A stretch of 46,124 bases of DNA from a virus (Duplodnaviria; Heunggongvirae; Uroviricota; Caudoviricetes): the IMG/VR virus record IMGVR_UViG_2547132255_000002; one strand, written 5' to 3'. Every line of letters begins with the position of its first letter. Within the stretch, counting starts at the first letter, position 1. Shown here piece after piece: positions 1,419 to 37,481 of this stretch. Below the pieces are notes generated by a model, which saw only the letters and a list, made by a program, of their open reading frames with translations, had not been told where the DNA came from and made no database searches. A program made the position numbers and the translations under genes.

Positions 1419-2489
1419 TTATTTGATTTCAATTTTGTCCCACTCCCTGCCTCTGTCATCACGATACTGTGATGCCATGGTGTCCGACTTATGCCCGAGA
1501 AGATGTTGAGCAAACTTATCGCTTATCTGCTTCTCATAGAGTCTTGCAGACAAACTGCGCAACTCGTGAAAGGTTGGCGGATCCCCTTCGAAGGAAAGAC
1601 CTGATGCTTTTCGTGCGCGCATAAAATACCTTGATACTGTGCCGGATGAAAGCGGTTCACGACGAGTAGATGCAATTATGGTTTCTCCGCCAAGAATCTC
1701 TTTGCATTTATCAAGTGTTTCCTTCATTGATATCCCGAGAGCATCAACATGCAATGCTGTTGGGATGGCAATTTTTACGCCTGTTTTGCTTTGCTCGACA
1801 TAAAGATATCCATCTACGATATCAGACCACTTCATTTCGCATAAATCACCAACTCGTTGCCCGGTAACAACAGCCAGTTCCATTGCAAGTCTTAGCCAAT
1901 ATGGTGATGATTCTGCTGCTTGATAAATTTTCAGGTATTCGTCAGCCGTAAGTCTTGATCTCCTTACCTCTGATTTTGCTGCGCGAGTGGCAGCGACCGG
2001 GTTTGTTGTTATATGGCCTTCAGCTATTGCCTCTCGGAATGCATCGCTCAGTGTTGATCTGATTAACTTGGCTGACGCAGCCTTGCCCTCGTCTATGTAT
2101 CCATTGAGCATTGCCGCAATTTCTTTTGTGGTGATGTCTTCAAGTGGAGCATCAGGCAGACCCCTCCTTATTGCTTTAATTTTGCTCATGTAATTTATGA
2201 GAGTCTTCTGCTTGATTCCTCTGCTGGCGAGGATTTTTTCGTAGCGATCAAGCCATGAATGTAACGTAACAGAATTATCACTGTTGATTCTCGCTGTCAG
2301 AGGCTTGTGTTTGTGTCCTGAAAATAACTCAATGTTGGCCTGTATAGCTTCAGTGATTGCGATTCGCCTGTCTCGGCCTAATCCAAACTCTTTACCCGTC
2401 CTTGGGTCCCTGTAGCAGTAATATCCATTGTTTCTTATATAAAGGTTAGGGGGTAAATCCCGGCGCTCATGACTTCGCCTTCTTCCCAT
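1419..2489 (-). CDS. int: Tyrosine integrase, lambda Int
   Basis: 356-aa product MGRRRSHERRDLPPNLYIRNNGYYCYRDPRTGKEF... matches recalled lambda Int over its full length. Confidence 0.97.
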   Translation of the reverse strand: MGRRRSHERRDLPPNLYIRNNGYYCYRDPRTGKEFGLGRDRRIAITEAIQANIELFSGHKHKPLTARINSDNSVTLHSWLDRYEKILASRGIKQKTLINYMSKIKAIRRGLPDAPLEDITTKEIAAMLNGYIDEGKAASAKLIRSTLSDAFREAIAEGHITTNPVAATRAAKSEVRRSRLTADEYLKIYQAAESSPYWLRLAMELAVVTGQRVGDLCEMKWSDIVDGYLYVEQSKTGVKIAIPTALHVDALGISMKETLDKCKEILGGETIIASTRREPLSSGTVSRYFMRARKASGLSFEGDPPTFHELRSLSARLYEKQISDKFAQHLLGHKSDTMASQYRDDRGREWDKIEIK

Positions 2490-2685
2490 TTCTGATCCTC
2501 TTCAAAAGGCTACCTGTTACTGGTCGATTTAAGTCAACCTTTACCGCTGATTCGTGGAACAGATACTCTCTTCCATCCTTAACCGGAGGAGGGAATATCC
2601 TGCACTCGCGTACCCATCGACGAACTGTTTCAAGGCTTCTTGGGCGTCGCTGGCGTGCGTTCCACTCCTGAAGTGTCAAGTACAT
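2467..2685 (-). CDS. xis: Excisionase, lambda Xis
   Basis: 72-aa product MYLTLQEWNARQRRPRSLETVRRWVRECRIFPPP... matches lambda Xis; overlaps int start as in lambda. Confidence 0.95.
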   Translation of the reverse strand: MYLTLQEWNARQRRPRSLETVRRWVRECRIFPPPVKDGREYLFHESAVKVDLNRPVTGSLLKRIRNGKKAKS

Positions 2686-2903
2686 CGCAAAGTCTCCGCA
2701 ATTACACGCAAGAAAAAACCGCCATCAGGCGGCTTGGTGTTCTTTCAGTTCTTCAATTCGAATATTGGTTACGTCTGCATGTGCTATCTGCGCCCACAGC
2801 ATCCAGTGGTCATAGCAGTCATTGATGTTCTCTGCTTCGATAACTCTGTTGAATGGTTCTCCATTCCATTCACCTGTGACTCGGAAGTGCATTTATCATC
2901 TCC

Positions 2904-2930
2904 ATAAAACAAAACTCGCCGTAGCGAGTT
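2904..2930 (-). terminator. Putative intrinsic terminator on the leftward (pL) transcript upstream of xis
   Basis: Hairpin AACTCGC-cgta-GCGAGTT followed on the minus strand by a U-run (TTTTGTTTTAT). Confidence 0.45.
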
Positions 2931-2964
2931 CAGATAAAAGAAATCCCCGCGAGTGCGAGGATTG

Positions 2965-3249
2965 TTATTCATTGCCGATATTCACCTTTATCGCGAACAC
3001 CTTTACCGGTTTATCACCGAAGTGGGGATGTGTGATTGTCTTGATTTCATATCCGTCATACGGGACGTCAATTCTGCGGCTGGAATCGTCGCGCTTCGGA
3101 TATCCCTTTGTGATAATCAGGCGGTCATACTCGCGGAACATAATTCGCTTATTCCAGTAGTCATTACACAGGCGATACTCTTCCGTTTTCTCTCCGCGAA
3201 TCATGGCATCGAAGTATTCACCTTTAACGGCAAGTTGCAGGTTAGCCAC
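2965..3249 (-). CDS. Hypothetical protein, possible ASCH/PUA-like fold
   Basis: 94-aa ORF; N-terminus LAVKGEYFDAMIRGEKTEEYR resembles the ASCH beta-barrel start motif; recalled similarity only. Confidence 0.45.
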   Translation of the reverse strand: MANLQLAVKGEYFDAMIRGEKTEEYRLCNDYWNKRIMFREYDRLIITKGYPKRDDSSRRIDVPYDGYEIKTITHPHFGDKPVKVFAIKVNIGNE

Positions 3250-8026: not shown

Positions 8027-8650
8027 TTATGCGACCTCGGAAGGAAGTCCAATCATCTTATTCAAATCTTCTACCCGTAAAGCAGGAAGTGCTGTACTTG
8101 CTTTATCTGCTTCTTTTGGTAGCAACTCTTTGCTTTCAGGCCAAACTTCAATAAGTCGCTTAACTGTTGTGACTGAGTTCAAAGCAGCCCATACATTTGA
8201 TTCGATATCCTTTTTCTTGGCTTCAAGTTTTTGTTGCAATGCGCAGATTTCATCAAACCTTTTTGTTATTTCGTGTTCTGCGCTAAACATGCATTTATCT
8301 TTGGTCGGAGTAGGGAGCAATATATCTTCGCCGTTGCCGTCTTTCCCATATGAATACCAGCCAACCCTTCTGCCAGATACAGTCAGATAAATTGAAGTTG
8401 AACGGGCATCGCATGAGTAAAATGAACATCCCAGCTTTTCAAGTTCTTCGCTTATAGCCATTAACTTGGATGATAACTGATCCACTTCCTCAGTTTTCTT
8501 TTTACCGCCAAACGCAACAACTCTGGCGTCAAGTGCAAGCTGGTTCTTTAACTTTGTTACTTCTTCAAGCTCAGTGAAAACCCCAGATTTAATTAAAGCG
8601 TTACGAGCGATTTTCTCTTTCATTCTCGTAGTTAAGCGGATTGATGACAT
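8027..8650 (-). CDS. Hypothetical protein in the N-cIII moron slot
   Basis: 207 aa from ATG at 8650 (MSSIRLTTRMKEK...) with RBS GAGAGGA; no family recognised. Confidence 0.6.
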   Translation of the reverse strand: MSSIRLTTRMKEKIARNALIKSGVFTELEEVTKLKNQLALDARVVAFGGKKKTEEVDQLSSKLMAISEELEKLGCSFYSCDARSTSIYLTVSGRRVGWYSYGKDGNGEDILLPTPTKDKCMFSAEHEITKRFDEICALQQKLEAKKKDIESNVWAALNSVTTVKRLIEVWPESKELLPKEADKASTALPALRVEDLNKMIGLPSEVA

Positions 8651-8661
8651 ATTAATTCCTC

Positions 8662-8988
8662 TCAAATAAGTGGTTTGCTGCCTAATTTCATTTTCTGGCG
8701 ACCAACACAAGTCACACCCATTTCACTGCGTGGCTTGCTGTACCATGTGCGCTGATTCTTGCGCTCAATACGTTGCAGGTTGCTTTCAATCTGTTCGTGG
8801 TATTCAGCCAGCACCGTAAGGTCTATCGGATTCAGTGCGCTTTCTACTCGTGATTTCGGTTTGCGATTCAGCGAGAGAATAGGGCGGTTAACTGGTTTTG
8901 CGCTTACCCCAACCAACAGGGGATTTGCTGCTTTCCATTGAGCCTGTTTCTCTGCGCGACGTTCGCGGCGGCGTGTTTGTGCATCCAT
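8662..8988 (-). CDS. N: Antitermination protein N (lambda type)
   Basis: MDAQTRRRERRAEKQAQWKAANPLLVGVSAKPVNRPILSLNRKPKSRVESALNPIDLTVLAEYH... matches lambda N including the ARM. Confidence 0.95.
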   Translation of the reverse strand: MDAQTRRRERRAEKQAQWKAANPLLVGVSAKPVNRPILSLNRKPKSRVESALNPIDLTVLAEYHEQIESNLQRIERKNQRTWYSKPRSEMGVTCVGRQKMKLGSKPLI

Positions 8989-9145
8989 CTGGATTCTCCT
9001 GTCAGTTAGCTTTGGTTGTGTGTGGGAGTCGTAGTCCTGAACGAAAACACCCCGCAATGGCACATTGGCAGCTAATCCGGATTCGCACTTCCGGCCAATG
9101 CTTCGTTTCGTATCACACACACCAAAGCCTTCTGCTTTGAATGCT

Positions 9146-9176
9146 GCCCTTCTTCAGGGCTTAATTTTTAAGAGCC
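9146..9176 (-). promoter_or_regulatory. nutL (boxB hairpin plus boxA)
   Basis: Minus strand reads boxA GGCTCTTA (lambda CGCTCTTA), AAAATTAA spacer, boxB GCCCTGAAGAAGGGC, identical to recalled lambda nutL. Confidence 0.85.
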
Positions 9177-9208
9177 TCACCTTCATGGTGGTCAGTGCGT
9201 CCTGCTGA

Positions 9209-9244
9209 TGGCTAAATAGTACGATTTGTACTTTATCGAGTCAA
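9209..9244 (-). promoter_or_regulatory. pL promoter (-35 TTGACT, 17-bp spacer, -10 TACTAT)
   Basis: Minus strand TTGACT-N17-TACTAT-ttagcc-ATCAGCAGGACGCACTGACC; the transcribed leader matches lambda pL. Confidence 0.75.
9218..9232. promoter_or_regulatory. Operator-like 15-bp palindrome in oL
   Basis: AGTACGATTTGTACT; 13 of 15 bp shared with a site in oR (10097-10111, reverse complement AATACGATATGTACT). Confidence 0.55.
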
Positions 9245-9369
9245 TACAAAATGTTCTAAATATAACTACTTTTTTATAACGCTTTGTATTTAATGGGTTT
9301 ATATTTTGGAAAAAGAAAACCCGACGCTAAGGTCGGGTTATTGTTGTGTGTTTTAGAGTGGTGAGGCTG

Positions 9370-10029
9370 TTAACTAAATGTCTCTTCAGGCCACTGGCTG
9401 GCGATAACTTTCCCTACTACGGAACAGCTATCATTGCATGGAATCATTGGATATTGCGGGTTTAGTGGCTGTAGGAACACCTGACCGCTATCCCTGATCA
9501 GTTTCTTGAAGGTAAACTCGTCACCACCAAGTCTGGCTATGCAGAAATCACCTGGCTCAACAGCCTGCTCGGGGTCAACGAGAATTAACATCCCGTCAGG
9601 AAAGCTTGGCTTCGATCCTGTTGGCGCGGTCATGGAATTACCTTCAACTTCAAGCCAAAACGCACAATCACTGGCTTTTTTGGTTGTGCTGACCCATCTC
9701 TCCGCATCACCTTTGGTAAAGGTTCTAAGCTCAGGCGAGAACATCCCTGCCTGAACATGAGAAAAAACAGGGTACTCATATTGTTTTTTAACGGGGGCAG
9801 ATGAGTATTCGCCAACAGGTGAAAATGTACCGTCGTGGTTGAATGAGACGTTATCAATACCAAGGTATTTAAACACCACACCAATCTCGTCAAGAGATGG
9901 ATGACGAGATCCGCGCAACCAGTGACCAATTCCACCCTGCGTCATACCAAGCTCTTCAGCTAACTTCTCTTGAGTTATGCCGAGCTCTTTCATTCTGGAT
10001 CTAGCCAGTTCATACCATTTCATTTTCAT
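9370..10029 (-). CDS. cI: CI repressor, chimeric: foreign HTH N-terminal domain plus lambda-type S24 C-terminal domain
   Basis: From [39 protein letters not shown] to the end matches lambda cI; N-terminal ~95 aa ([33 protein letters not shown]...) does not. Confidence 0.9.
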
Positions 10030-10084
10030 ACCCTTATTATTACGCTCTGTACTAAAACCATCCATGCACAAGATGTATTTTTAT

Positions 10085-10113
10085 TTGCATTCTAAAAGTA
10101 CATATCGTATTAT
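10085..10113 (+). promoter_or_regulatory. pR promoter (-35 TTGCAT, 17-bp spacer, -10 TATTAT)
   Basis: Consensus-like hexamers 27-55 bp upstream of the cro start; the spacer contains the oR palindrome. Confidence 0.6.
10097..10111. promoter_or_regulatory. Operator-like palindrome in oR
   Basis: AGTACATATCGTATT, reverse complement near-identical to the oL site. Confidence 0.55.
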
Positions 10114-10139
10114 TGCTTCATGGTTACTATGGAGGGCAT

Positions 10140-10355
10140 ATGAGCAACCTACGAAAATATCGAGAGTCACTGAATATCTCTCAAACAACACTTGCTAAGG
10201 CAGTTGGATGCACACAGGGAGCTATCGGACATTGGGAATCTGGTCGTCGCTTCCCAGACCTTAAAACATGCCGTGCTCTTGTTGAGTGCCTAAACAAGTT
10301 AGGCGCAAAAGTCAGTCTTGATGACGTGTTCCCGCCGGAACACAAAGCCGCTTAA
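10140..10355 (+). CDS. cro: Cro-like HTH repressor (XRE family, non-lambda)
   Basis: 71 aa MSNLRKYRESLNISQTTLAKAVGCTQGAIGHWESG...; RBS GGAGGG; divergent from cI. Confidence 0.8.
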   Translation: MSNLRKYRESLNISQTTLAKAVGCTQGAIGHWESGRRFPDLKTCRALVECLNKLGAKVSLDDVFPPEHKAA

Positions 10356-10364
10356 GACATTCCA

Positions 10365-10395
10365 GCTCTTACACATCACAGCCCTGAAAAAGGGC
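10365..10395 (+). promoter_or_regulatory. nutR (boxA GCTCTTACA, boxB GCCCTGAAAAAGGGC)
   Basis: Matches recalled lambda nutR; followed by lambda-like tR1 region and cII leader. Confidence 0.85.
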
Positions 10396-10473
10396 ATCAA
10401 TTAAACCACACCTATGGTGTATGCATTTATTTGCATACATTCAATCAATTGTTATCTAAGGAAATACTTACAT

Positions 10474-10767
10474 ATGGTTCGTGCAAACAAACGCAACGAG
10501 GCTCTACGAATCGAGAGTGCGTTGCTTAACAAAATCGCAATGCTTGGAACTGAGAAGACAGCGGAAGCTGTGGGAGTTGATAAGTCGCAGATCAGCAGGT
10601 GGAAGAGGGACTGGATTCCAAAGTTCTCAATGCTGCTTGCTGTTCTTGAATGGGGTGTCGTTGACGACGACATGGCCCGATTGGCACGACAAGTTGCTTC
10701 GATTCTCACCAATAAAAAACGCCCGGCGGCAACCGAGCGTTCTGATCAAATACAAATGGAATTTTAA
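10474..10767 (+). CDS. cII: Transcriptional activator CII (lambda type)
   Basis: MVRANKRNEALRIESALLNKIAMLGTEKTAEAVGVDKSQISRWKRDWIPKFSMLLAVLEWGVVDDDMARLARQVA... matches lambda CII. Confidence 0.95.
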   Translation: MVRANKRNEALRIESALLNKIAMLGTEKTAEAVGVDKSQISRWKRDWIPKFSMLLAVLEWGVVDDDMARLARQVASILTNKKRPAATERSDQIQMEF

Positions 10768-10789: not shown

Positions 10790-11062
10790 ATGCGAAACAA
10801 AGGCTTTAATCCACCTGATACACACAAAGAAGTTAAGCGTTTGCGCTTCCTTCGTTCCATTGATGAAAGAACTCAAATCTCTTTTGTGAAAGTTGCCAGA
10901 ACTGAGCTTCTGAAGGCTGAGGCGAGGGCGTTGCTCCCGTCTCTACCAAAAGAGGAGGGATATACGTTCATTCCAAACGCATTTCTGGAAAAGCTGCTCA
11001 AAGAAGACATATCCGTAAGTCAGTTTAACGATGTTCTTAAGGTCTTTCGTCAAGGCAGGTAG
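10790..11062 (+). CDS. Hypothetical protein between cII and the replication initiator
   Basis: 90 aa from ATG 10790 (MRNKGFNPPDTHKEVKRLRFL...) with RBS GAGGT; stop 2 nt before the initiator start. Confidence 0.5.
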   Translation: MRNKGFNPPDTHKEVKRLRFLRSIDERTQISFVKVARTELLKAEARALLPSLPKEEGYTFIPNAFLEKLLKEDISVSQFNDVLKVFRQGR

Positions 11063-33978: not shown

Positions 33979-35361
33979 GTGGCAACTTGGCAACAGAGCA
34001 TCAACTCCGGTGGTTTTCTGGCTGGAATTGGTGCGCAAAATGAGAATGCGCCAAAGGCGAGTGATGTAAATGAGACACTGGCTTACATTCGTCAGAATAA
34101 TGAGGATGCCAGGCTTGGTCGCAACAATATCGGTCTGCAGGCTCTGCAGGGAATAACAAGCACAATGCAAGGATTGCAGCAATATGATCAGCAGAAGCAA
34201 GAGGCAGCATTCAGAAAGGATTATGCTTCTGCTATTCAATCAGGTGATCGACAGCAGGTTCGAGATCTGATGACCAAATATCCTGGTCAATTAGAGAAGA
34301 TTCAGTCTGGTATGAAGTGGGCAGACGAAGACCAGCGCAATTCTATCGGCACCTTAGCGGCTGGCGCACGACTTGCAGCCTCGTCTCCAGAAGCAATGCA
34401 ATCATGGCTGCAAAACAACGCCAAGGAACTGACTCGCGTCGGTGTTGACCCTAATAACGTTGCTCAGATGTATCAGCAGAATCCTTCAGGATTTGGTGAG
34501 TTTGTTGATCACCTTGGAATGTCAGCGCTTGGTCCTAATGATTATTTCAATGTTCAGGACAAGATGGCTGGTCGTGAGATTGACCGAGGCAGGCTGGCAG
34601 AGACAATCCGCAGCAATCAGGCTGGCGAGGCACTTCAGGCGAGAGGGCAAAACCTTTCCTATCAGTCAGCAATGACTGGACACGGACTTGCAGCAGAAAG
34701 ACTGGCACTTGATAAGCAGAAATTCGGTTTTGAAGTACAACAGGCACAAAAGAAGGCCGATGAACTTATTAATGCTGCGCCAAAACTATCCGTGAACATG
34801 GAAAAGGCTATAGAAAAATCAGCAGGTGATGCGGCAGCTAGTCGTAATGCTGCCGATTCAATGACAACGCTTGCTGACACGCTGGAGAAGGAGAAGCCAA
34901 CTCCTGGTTTGTTCGGTAACGCTGAAAATATGTTCACTAAGCTTACGGGGCAAGATAACTACCTCCGAGATATGCGGATTAGATTCAACCAACTAGCCAA
35001 TGCGCAGGCAACCAAGCTTCTCCCTCCCGGCCCTGCATCAGATAAGGATATTGAGTTTGCAAGGAAAGGCATTCCAAGCGAAACGGATAATCCAATGGTC
35101 ATGGCTCGATGGTTAAGGGGTATGGCAAAAATGGAAAGTAATAACGCGAAGTTCAACGAGTTTAGGTCAGAGTGGATGAGTGCAAATGGCAGCCCAGGAC
35201 AATCTGATCGCAACCGAAACATCATGGGGATGGATGTTAAGAAGGGTGAATCATTGAACTCTGCGGCAAAACGTTTTCTTTCCTCAAGTTATGGCGATAG
35301 CCAACCTCAACAGCAATTGTCCGATGACGAATTAATTAGCAAATATCTCGGAGGGCAGTAA
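33979..35361 (+). CDS. Ejection protein (P22 gp20-like)
   Basis: 460 aa from GTG with RBS GGAGGT; synteny and size. Confidence 0.65.
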
Positions 35362-37481
35362 TGGCCTATAGTCGTGAACAGTTGATGACGGCGTTAAGGA
35401 ATGCTGATGCTGCCGGCGATACTGAGGGAGCACGTCGCATTGCTCAGATGCTGTCTTCTGGTGATCAATCCACTCAAAACCAATCGCAGCCAGAAGAACA
35501 ATCTCTGGTGGGAAAAGCTACTAACTGGCTCACTGGTGGTCAAAGTGCAGGGCAAATTGCAGAACAGGCTGGTCGTGGTCTGGTAAACATACCATTTGAC
35601 GTATTGCAGGGTGGCGCAAGTCTGATTAATGCAATCAGTCAGGGGCTTGGTGGCCCCAAGGTTTTGGATGATGTTTATCGCCCAGTAGACAGACCTACAG
35701 ACCCCTACGCGCAAGCCGGTGAAACTATTGGTGGGTATCTCCTGCCAATTGGCACAGCGGCAAAAGCTGCTGGAGCGCCAGCAAAGCTCGCTGAAGATAT
35801 CGGTTCCGCAGGAAACATGATTGCAGGTTCTCTTGCTGATGCTGCAAATCAGGAGGGCGACTTTGCACAAAATGCTGCCATTAACGGTGGTATCAATATT
35901 GGTGCTCAGGGGATACTTTCTGGGGCTGGAAGGATCTTAACCTCTAAATCACCTCAAGCTCTTGGTGGCGGGGCAATAAATTCCGCTGCTGATGTTTCGA
36001 AAATGGCAAAGTCTGGTACAGGAAGAGAGATTATTGCCAGACAGTCAGCTAACGTGTCAGACGAAATAGCAAAAGCAGCAGATACTGCTGGAATAGATAT
36101 CAACGCATTAACTCCTGGCATGAGATCAGGTAGTCGTGGTCTTGCTCAGGCAGAGGGGATTCTGGCGTCAAAGCCCGGAATTACACAGGATGCACATACC
36201 AAAGCATTCAGTGAAATAGAGTCGAAATTTAACTCAGCATTGGATGAGTTTGGGGCTGAAGCAGGAACTGCATCAGAAAAAAGTGCAGCCATAAAACAAA
36301 GGGTTTTGGCAAGTATTGATAAAATGAAAAATTCAGAAAAGGCCGCATGGGATAGCGTCCGCTCCACGATGCCTGACGCAAAGGCCAGAATGTCAAATCT
36401 GAACGCTACAATTCAGGGTGATATTTTGGCTGGCATGCCGCTAACTCCTGAGATGAAACAATTCGCATCTGCTTATGCTAAAACTGGTAAAAAAGGAATC
36501 ACGTTTGATGCCATGAAGGCATGGCGAAGTAAACTTGCTGACGCAGAGCAGAAGTATATAAGGTCTGGTGAGGCAAATACGGCAAGGCGAATGGCTGAGC
36601 TTCGTGATGCAGCAACGGAAGATATGCGCATAATGGCTCAAAATGGCGGTTTTCTTGATGACTGGCAAAAAGCTAATGATCTGTCAAAGGCAAGATTTAC
36701 AGCACAAGAACAGGCTGAAGCAGCGTTTGGTAGAGACCTTGCAACTGATCAGTTGGTAACTAATGGCTCTAAGGCGTTACAGGGTTCAGCAAAAAGTGGA
36801 ACAGGTCAGTTCCATAAAATAATAAGCGCCCTACCTGAGTCGGAACGCGCGCCAGCAATTGCGTCAATATTACAAGATGCAATGTCGCAAGGGGTACGCG
36901 GAGGTAAGTCTGAAGAGGCTGGAATTAAGCATATCGCGACTATTCTTACCCCACAAAACGTGAAGGCAATTAGTCGATATTCTCCAGAACTTGGCAGGAT
37001 TACAAGTTCATACGGAGAACTTGCACGAGCAGCAACAAAGCCACTTCGATATGTTGAACAGACAGGGCGATCTATGCCAGCCATTAGCACTCTTGAGAAT
37101 GGCCTTCATCCAGTTTTAGAGAGCGCATTGTCTGGCGCTTTTAGAACTACTGGCACTATCGCAGGGTTCTCTGGAGGAGGCGTTATTGGAGCAATAGCGG
37201 GTGGCGCTGCAGGTGGAGCAATTGATGCAATGGCAAAAGGAGCGATAGCGAAATTATCCGCAACTAGAAGCGGTCGTTACGCTATTGAAAAGGCTGTTCA
37301 AGAGGCAACAAAGGCCGTTAAGGTTGGGGCAAGTGATGGTGCATTAGCGGCGGCGGAACGCAGATTTATGGCAAATAAGGCCGCCGTAAAAGCAATACGT
37401 GATGCAGTCGGAAACGAAGAGTTTCAGCGCTTAGCGAGGGCTGGTATTGTGGCATCGCTAAGCGGAATGGCACAGGAGTAA
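35361..37481 (+). CDS. Ejection protein (P22 gp16-like)
   Basis: 706 aa, Gly/Ala-rich; start overlaps gp20 stop (TAATG); synteny. Confidence 0.6.

Follow-up and report, generated by a model that had tools for sequence, protein, structure and literature searches.

A probable VT2-Sakai-type immunity module with lambda-like flanks in a P22-like Escherichia coli prophage

Identity of the immunity region

The DNA analyzed here (the window) is the 46,124-nucleotide (nt) viral record IMGVR_UViG_2547132255_000002 (Caudoviricetes) of IMG/VR, in which the region at positions 9209 to 10355 carries a cI repressor gene, a divergently transcribed cro gene and two groups of operators, oL and oR, bordered by the genes N and cII. 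As a whole, the window corresponds to a prophage of the P22-like group (Lederbergvirus; HK620/Sf6/CUS-3-like) whose early region is lambdoid. A first-pass annotation, made from the letters alone, described the region as a chimera in which the C-terminal domain of the lambda cI repressor is joined to a foreign DNA-binding domain with matching non-lambda operators. Based on our analysis, the region very likely belongs to the VT2-Sakai immunity type and serves a P22-like Escherichia coli prophage as its lysis/lysogeny switch (an immC-type immunity module). This immunity type is already known and very common; it has previously been sequenced, annotated and discussed for the VT2-Sakai-type Shiga toxin (Stx) phages.

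The cI-oR-cro block is collinear with, and 92.8% identical (blastn) to, that of the Stx1-converting phage AP005153, and it is equally similar in Stx2-II, Nil2, 1717, YYZ-2008, 2851, PA4-type phages and VT2-Sakai itself. At the protein level, 80 of the 83 residues of the cI DNA-binding domain and 70 of the 71 residues of Cro are identical to those of VT2-Sa and the Stx1 phage, with identical recognition helices. The six operators that we localized match the published VT2-Sa OL1-3 and OR1-3, each with one to three differing positions out of 17. The AP005153 record contains two annotated sets of three 17-bp "putative operators" together with promoters, and these operator sequences are the VT2-Sa OR1-3 and OL1-3 of Table S1 in PMC10742460. 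According to the account of Fattah et al. (2000) given in PMC10742460, the VT2-Sa CI has a lambda-like C-terminus and a divergent N-terminus, and lambda cross-immunity was reported. The first-pass annotation would have been contradicted by a known immunity type with operators other than those it proposed; the type is indeed known, but its published operators match the proposed palindromes.

The VT2-Sakai (Sp5) group shares with the window the lambda-like C-terminal domain and the junction within cI, the operator half-site cores, which are identical, and the centre-to-centre spacings of oL1-oL2 (25 bp), oL2-oL3 (33 bp) and oR2-oR3 (26 bp). The window differs from the Stx type in its oL and oR sequences (78% and 85% identity, respectively), in the absence of a gene between cI and oL, with an oL1-oR1 distance of 879 bp versus ~2.3 kb, in its flanks, which are lambda-type N and cII compared with the HK97-type N and HK022-type cII annotated in AP005153, and in the genome that hosts it, which is that of a P22-like podovirus and not of an Stx phage. 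In the VT2-Sakai reference NC_000902 (~2401-3096), an in-frame stop lies within the cI recognition helix (GMT-stop-GGIGHW), and RefSeq splits the gene into a truncated cI and a "c1 repressor fragment"; this stop may be genuine or an artefact of sequencing.

The region has the composition of a lambda-type (LexA-like, S24) CI switch. With lambda it shares the divergent cI and cro genes, a tripartite oR (10038-10112) and a tripartite oL (9217-9291) that overlap the predicted promoters, the cleavage site with its Ala-Gly pair, an S24 C-terminal domain with a Ser/Lys dyad, a timm-like terminator, and N, nutL, nutR and cII. The N-terminal domain, which belongs to the helix-turn-helix family HTH_3, the operators and the fold family of Cro are unrelated to those of lambda (lambda Cro is not an HTH_3 protein), and rexAB is absent from the window. 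Accordingly, the region does not belong to imm-lambda: it contains no lambda N-terminal domain, lambda Cro or 17-bp TATCACCGC-type operators, and a blastn comparison with lambda gave no homology at 9211-9311 and 9781-10361, in agreement with the first-pass statement that cro and the operators are unlike those of lambda. The features of the region are listed in Table 1.

Table 1. Features of the immunity region and its flanks, in window coordinates
Feature	Positions	Strand	Sequence elements	Description
N	8662-8988	minus	starts MDAQTRRRERR	Antiterminator, 108 aa, lambda-like; flank outside the immunity module
nutL	9146-9176	minus	boxA GGCTCTTA (9176-9169); boxB GCCCTGAAGAAGGGC (9160-9146)	
pL	9209-9244	minus	-35 TTGACT (9244-9239); 17-nt spacer; -10 TACTAT (9221-9216)	Start near 9209; from consensus scan
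oL1	9217-9233		TAGTACGATTTGTACTT	In pL spacer/-10; contains the first-pass oL palindrome; orthologue VT2-Sa OL1 TAGTACGATATGTACTT
oL2	9242-9258		CAATACAAAATGTTCTA	Overlaps pL -35; orthologue VT2-Sa OL2 CAATACAATTTGTTCTA
oL3	9275-9291		TATAACGCTTTGTATTT	Orthologue VT2-Sa OL3 TACAACGCTTTGTATTT
Intrinsic terminator	9318-9339	minus	stem CCCGAC/GTCGGG, then T-run	Directly 3' of cI; from terminator scan
cI	9370-10029	minus	starts MKMKW (ATG 10029)	219 aa
cI residues 84-219	9370-9780	minus		Lambda-type cleavage region and S24 peptidase/oligomerization domain
cI residues 1-83	9781-10029	minus	recognition helix TQGGIGHWL	HTH_3 DNA-binding domain and upper linker, VT2-Sakai type
pRM (probable)	10037-10064	minus	-35 TGGATG (10064-10059); 16-nt spacer; -10 TAATAA (10042-10037)	Inferred from sequence
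oR3	10038-10054		TATTACGCTCTGTACTA	Within pRM spacer/-10; orthologue VT2-Sa OR3 TATTACGCTCTGTACTG
oR2	10064-10080		ATGCACAAGATGTATTT	Adjoins pRM -35; orthologue VT2-Sa OR2 ATGCACAATGTGTATTT
pR	10085-10113	plus	-35 TTGCAT; 17-nt spacer; -10 TATTAT	
oR1	10096-10112		AAGTACATATCGTATTA	In pR spacer/-10; contains the first-pass oR palindrome; orthologue VT2-Sa OR1 AAGTACATATTGTATTT
cro	10140-10355	plus		71 aa, all-helical HTH_3 protein (Pfam E=1.4e-12)
nutR	10364-10395	plus	boxA AGCTCTTA (10364-10371); boxB GCCCTGAAAAAGGGC (10381-10395)	
cII	10474-10767	plus		Lambda-like flank of the cassette

The cI and Cro proteins

From Y84 (YEYPVF...) to its end, cI is identical to lambda cI in 133 of 136 residues, the differences being S139C, E217D and G236S in lambda numbering. 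The first-pass annotation had called this part lambda-identical; the match does extend to the C-terminus, but it is near-identity, and the residue preceding YEYPVF is Q and not E. At the DNA level, the C-terminal domain is 92.7% identical to that of lambda, with 26 synonymous and 3 non-synonymous codon differences. Ala94-Gly95, Ser132 and Lys175 align with A111-G112, S149 and K192 of lambda; Pfam recognizes Peptidase_S24 (E=9e-29), and the best solved structure is that of lambda repressor (PDB 3bdn, E=2e-96).

The N-terminal part, with HTH_3 at residues 11-58 (E=8e-11), has 52% nt identity with lambda, which is about chance level, and the two protein domains are essentially unrelated, as had been proposed. 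Its length is 83 aa from the ATG at 10029; the ~95 aa of the first-pass annotation fit the longest open reading frame, which begins at the TTG at 10071. We rejected that start, as well as the ATG of AP005153, because oR3 and pRM would then fall within coding sequence. The shorter start is annotated in other records; with the second ATG, the start used in ON470605 and Nil2, cI has 217 aa. Together, the N-terminal domain and linker are 18 residues shorter than those of lambda.

According to Pfam, the Cro of the window lies outside the lambda Cro family. It is 35% identical to the N-terminal domain of cI (E=5e-13), of which it is a paralogue, and the two proteins have their recognition helix in common (TQGAIGHW in Cro, TQGGIGHW in cI).

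Operators and promoters

The first-pass annotation proposed a shared 15-bp palindrome, AGTACGATTTGTACT in oL and AGTACATATCGTATT (reverse complement AATACGATATGTACT) in oR, in place of the 17-bp lambda operators. Both were correctly placed, at 9218-9232 and at 10097-10111 in the pR spacer/-10, and they form the central parts of oL1 and oR1; the full set, however, consists of three plus three sites of 17 bp, of which oL2, oL3, oR2 and oR3 are missing from the first-pass annotation. The consensus of the 12 half-sites is wARTACr, and all 12 have A5 and C6. Exact matches to ARTACN5GTAYT occur only twice in the 46 kb, at the cores of oL1 and oR1. Allowing up to one mismatch, 5 sites were found versus 2.6 expected, four of the five in the two intergenic regions, and allowing up to two mismatches, 54 were found versus 45 expected. 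These genome-wide counts are not significant by themselves; therefore, the weight of the assignment rests on the position and clustering of the sites and on their conservation.

Conservation was evaluated in 86 loci, comprising 80 IMG/VR loci encoding the same Cro together with phage records. Among the 30 distinct oR and 38 distinct oL variants, variable columns amounted to 4 of 60 in the half-site cores, 11 of 30 in the operator centres and 49 of 110 in the spacers (Fisher p=9e-8 for cores versus spacers). The differences between the window and VT2-Sa operators are located mainly at the central (7-11) and flanking (1 and 17) positions, with one in oL3 at position 3 (T for C).

With respect to the promoters, the centres of oR1 and oL1 precede the pR and pL starts by ~16-17 bp, an arrangement also seen in lambda, and the distance from the oR2 centre to the cI ATG is 43 bp (42 bp in lambda). 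The elements of pRM coincide with the putative maintenance promoter annotated in AP005153, and its transcript would probably begin at the cI ATG or beside it, so that the mRNA, like that of lambda, would have no leader. The oL2-oL3 spacing of 33 bp compares with 20 bp in lambda. The oR2-oR3 and oL1-oL2 spacings are invariant in 82-86 loci, and both are also fixed by the promoter geometry. Between oR1 and oR2, by contrast, the spacing varies: it is 32 bp in 17 loci, the window included, 33 bp in 58, 34 bp in 10 and 35 bp in one; the source of this variation is a T-run between oR2 and the pR -35 (10081-10084), which differs in length among natural alleles.

Joints with lambda

Ungapped alignments across the boundaries showed that the joints with lambda are sharp, within a few bases. 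On the left, 8687-9210 corresponds to lambda 35062-35583 (N-nutL-pL(+1)) at 94.3% identity (blastn), and the homology stops at 9210, i.e., at the transcription start. It resumes in the 3' part of lambda cI (9376-9780, 93.3%; blastn), between the last codon/stop of cI (~9375) and codon Y84 (9780), which lies in the linker 10 residues ahead of the cleavage site, and again from the nutR boxA, 6 nt past the cro stop (10362), through tR1 to the cII stop (~10763), with 96.8% identity over 10362-10763 (blastn). Thus, the first-pass description of pL downstream of +1, nutL and N and of nutR, tR1 and cII as lambda-like was confirmed, as were the two joints it had placed at the cI linker and just past cro; those at the pL +1, the cI stop and the cII stop are additional. 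The boxB sequences of nutL and nutR are those of lambda, while the first base of boxA differs from lambda CGCTCTTA at both sites.

A further short match, 9312-9347 with lambda 35799-35834 (89%, blastn), contains the intrinsic terminator that follows cI, which the first-pass annotation did not mention. In lambda, this segment lies just downstream of the rexB stop codon, and we take it to be the timm terminator. The stem is maintained by a compensatory G-C to A-T change (CCCGGC/GCCGGG in lambda, CCCGAC/GTCGGG in the window), and rexA and rexB are absent between cI and the terminator. The slot between cI and oL (9292-9369), the place of rexAB in lambda, is empty in the window, while relatives hold 0.7-1.4 kb of unrelated cargo there, such as orf22 in VT2-Sa/Nil2 and the 348-aa Orf11 in phi458. 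In 61 loci, oL1 and oR1 are 878-882 bp apart; in another 20, the interval is 1.6-2.3 kb.

Comparison with other lambdoid repressors

Outside the VT2-Sakai group, similarities were also found in the Salmonella phages L (c2/cro) and epsilon34 (gp46/gp47), which share the recognition helix, TQGxIGHWL in cI and CTQGAIGHxESGRR in Cro, and whose N-terminal domains are ~54% identical to that of the window. The oL of phage L carries CAATACAAAATGTACTT twice and belongs to the same operator family, and the C-terminal domain of c2 is a distant allele. In epsilon34, the C-terminal domain is lambda-like and ~80% identical, and the whole protein is a diverged version of the window cI. The reported epsilon34 operator consensus, which is of this family too, is WTACRAWWTGTAT, its specificity was predicted to differ, and VT2-Sa and Nil2 were named among the closest relatives of the N-terminus of its repressor, with a lambda/HK97-like C-terminal domain (PMC2629481).

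The phages 933W, BAA2326 and H-19B also have lambdoid cI/cro switches with S24-type repressors, and their N-terminal domains and operators differ from those of the window. H-19B was ruled out as the source of the immunity type, its cI and cro being unrelated in sequence, and 933W and BAA2326 (Koudelka-lab repressors) were ruled out as the same type based on their operators and N-terminal domains. The BAA2326 repressor is partly lambda-like, with 61% identity overall, and its sites are weakly symmetric. Five operator sites have been reported for 933W and four oR sites for H-19B; a search for a fourth operator in the oR of the window found none.

Distribution, modularity and alternative explanations

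A total of 776 of the 5426 complete E. coli genomes (14%) carry the block comprising the N-terminal domain, oR and cro (9781-10355), with at least 99% identity in 92, 95-99% in 120 and 90-95% in 566 genomes. The whole 1.3 kb is ~99% identical in the P22-like coliphages vB_EcoP-720R6, 683R2, Dewey and Louie and in ~205 complete E. coli genomes. Across the 80 IMG/VR loci, oL, the terminator, the C- and N-terminal domains, oR and cro remain linked wherever the locus is long enough, while each flank comes in three states: lambda-type, a variant (87% for N, 65% for cII) or missing. Since the cassette parts stay together while the flanks switch, the cassette is bounded as the first-pass annotation proposed, and the lambda-like flanks of the window are one of several combinations.

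The sharp junctions with lambda and the 94-97% identity of the flanks could also be explained if lambda itself had recently recombined with a hetero-immune phage to give a novel chimera, with an immunity type private to this genome. Nevertheless, VT2-Sakai, Stx1-phi, Stx2-II, Nil2, 1717, 2851, YYZ-2008 and PA phages all carry this cI, joined at the same point, and the cassette was found in all 80 IMG/VR loci examined as well as in the coliphages and E. coli genomes cited above. Because of this distribution, such an origin is already refuted and almost certainly incorrect. Additionally, the C-terminal domain is 7% off lambda at the nt level, nearly all of it synonymous, which indicates a separate allele and not lambda DNA. 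The alleles of the window, lambda and the Stx/VT2-Sa type are approximately equidistant (91-93% nt identity, differences mostly synonymous), which argues against a recent cross with lambda; window and Stx type are closer to each other in the N-terminal domain (95%) and cro (98%) than in the C-terminal domain. The chimera of the first-pass annotation therefore stands as a mosaic relative to lambda, in which an S24 module is joined to an unrelated helix-turn-helix domain and the operators and cro were exchanged together, but given this equidistance the direction implied by a foreign domain joined to lambda cI cannot be told. The junction in the cI linker may have been used more than once, as the allele comparison suggests.

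Two other possibilities concern the operators. The strict palindrome occurs without mismatch at oL1 and oR1 only, which would be expected if there were a single 15-bp operator per side instead of a tripartite oL and oR. Such an arrangement is highly improbable, given that four further sites with an invariant AC-N5-GT frame lie at the expected spots (the pL -35, the pRM -35 and the pRM -10), that these are retained in relatives while the spacers diverge, and that they correspond to the published VT2-Sa OL2, OL3, OR2 and OR3. The window subtype might instead have drifted to a new specificity, being hetero-immune to VT2-Sakai-type phages: three residues in the N-terminal domain, one in Cro and up to three bases per operator differ from VT2-Sa, the identities of oR (85%) and oL (78%) are far below those of the coding parts, and the operator differences cluster at central bases, which can tune affinity in other repressors. 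However, the two subtypes do not differ in the recognition helices of cI and Cro, the half-site cores are unchanged, and the substitutions in the N-terminal domain (D47S, E48D and V61I) fall outside the helix-turn-helix; we consider a change in specificity very unlikely.

With membership in the VT2-Sakai type as the preferred interpretation, the value of the region as a discovery is small. It has a modest value as an illustration of mosaic joints located exactly at functional boundaries, and of one specificity cassette that moves between Stx phages of the siphovirus and podovirus types and P22-like coliphages.

Proposed working of the switch

The model proposed here combines the observed parts, their positions and their conservation with the biology of lambda. 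Dimers of cI would bind the six 17-bp pseudo-palindromic operators (half-site wARTACr) through the HTH_3 N-terminal domain. Occupation of oL1/oL2 would cover pL and that of oR1 would cover pR, shutting off the lytic promoters, while cI bound at oR2, which adjoins the pRM -35 at the lambda distance, would activate its own transcription, and oR3, inside pRM, would mediate negative autoregulation. In lytic growth, Cro, which is a small HTH_3 paralogue of the cI N-terminal domain and shares its recognition helix, would occupy the same sites. Since cI is a lambda allele from 10 residues before the Ala-Gly site to the C-terminus, RecA-stimulated self-cleavage at Ala94-Gly95, dimerization and, probably, dimer-dimer cooperativity should be lambda-like, with a DNA specificity that is not that of lambda. 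At the level of the genome, the pieces that carry specificity, oL, the N-terminal domain, oR and cro, travel with the lambda-type C-terminal domain and the terminator as one cassette, from the pL start to the cro stop codon, recombining into differing N and cII/replication backgrounds.

Several points weigh against this interpretation. The proposed pRM is weak and was missed by a strict consensus promoter scan. The oR1-oR2 spacing of 32-35 bp in the window and its relatives compares with 24 bp in lambda; because it is variable and unlike that of lambda, lambda-style oR1-oR2 cooperativity is only assumed here, and a strict geometry of the lambda kind does not seem to be needed. Moreover, the repressor of the Stx phage 933W has been reported to lack cooperativity, and lambda rules are thus not always transferable. 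The literature that we searched held no report of direct binding of the cognate repressor to these operators, and the sole electrophoretic mobility shift assay found used lambda CI (PMC10742460).

Given that the C-terminal domain is a lambda allele and the DNA-binding end is not, mixed dimers or tetramers with lambda-type repressors might form in poly-lysogens and lead to cross-talk; separately, the variable oR1-oR2 spacing might reflect a switch that works independently of lambda-style cooperativity. We regard these suggestions as speculative and unlikely. If correct, the cross-talk would mean partial cross-immunity, or dominant-negative destabilization, between formally hetero-immune prophages.

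Genomic context

The structural genes of the window are ~96-97% identical to those of HK620, Sf6 and vB_EcoP-611R6. Its replication module contains a DnaB-type helicase and not lambda O/P, and the early region is lambda-like in short patches only. Downstream of N, 8027-8650 (minus strand) encodes a 207-aa conserved phage protein (phrog_1965, E=1e-81), and between cII and the replication genes, 10791-11062 (plus strand) encodes a 90-aa conserved phage protein (phrog_2519, E=2e-57).

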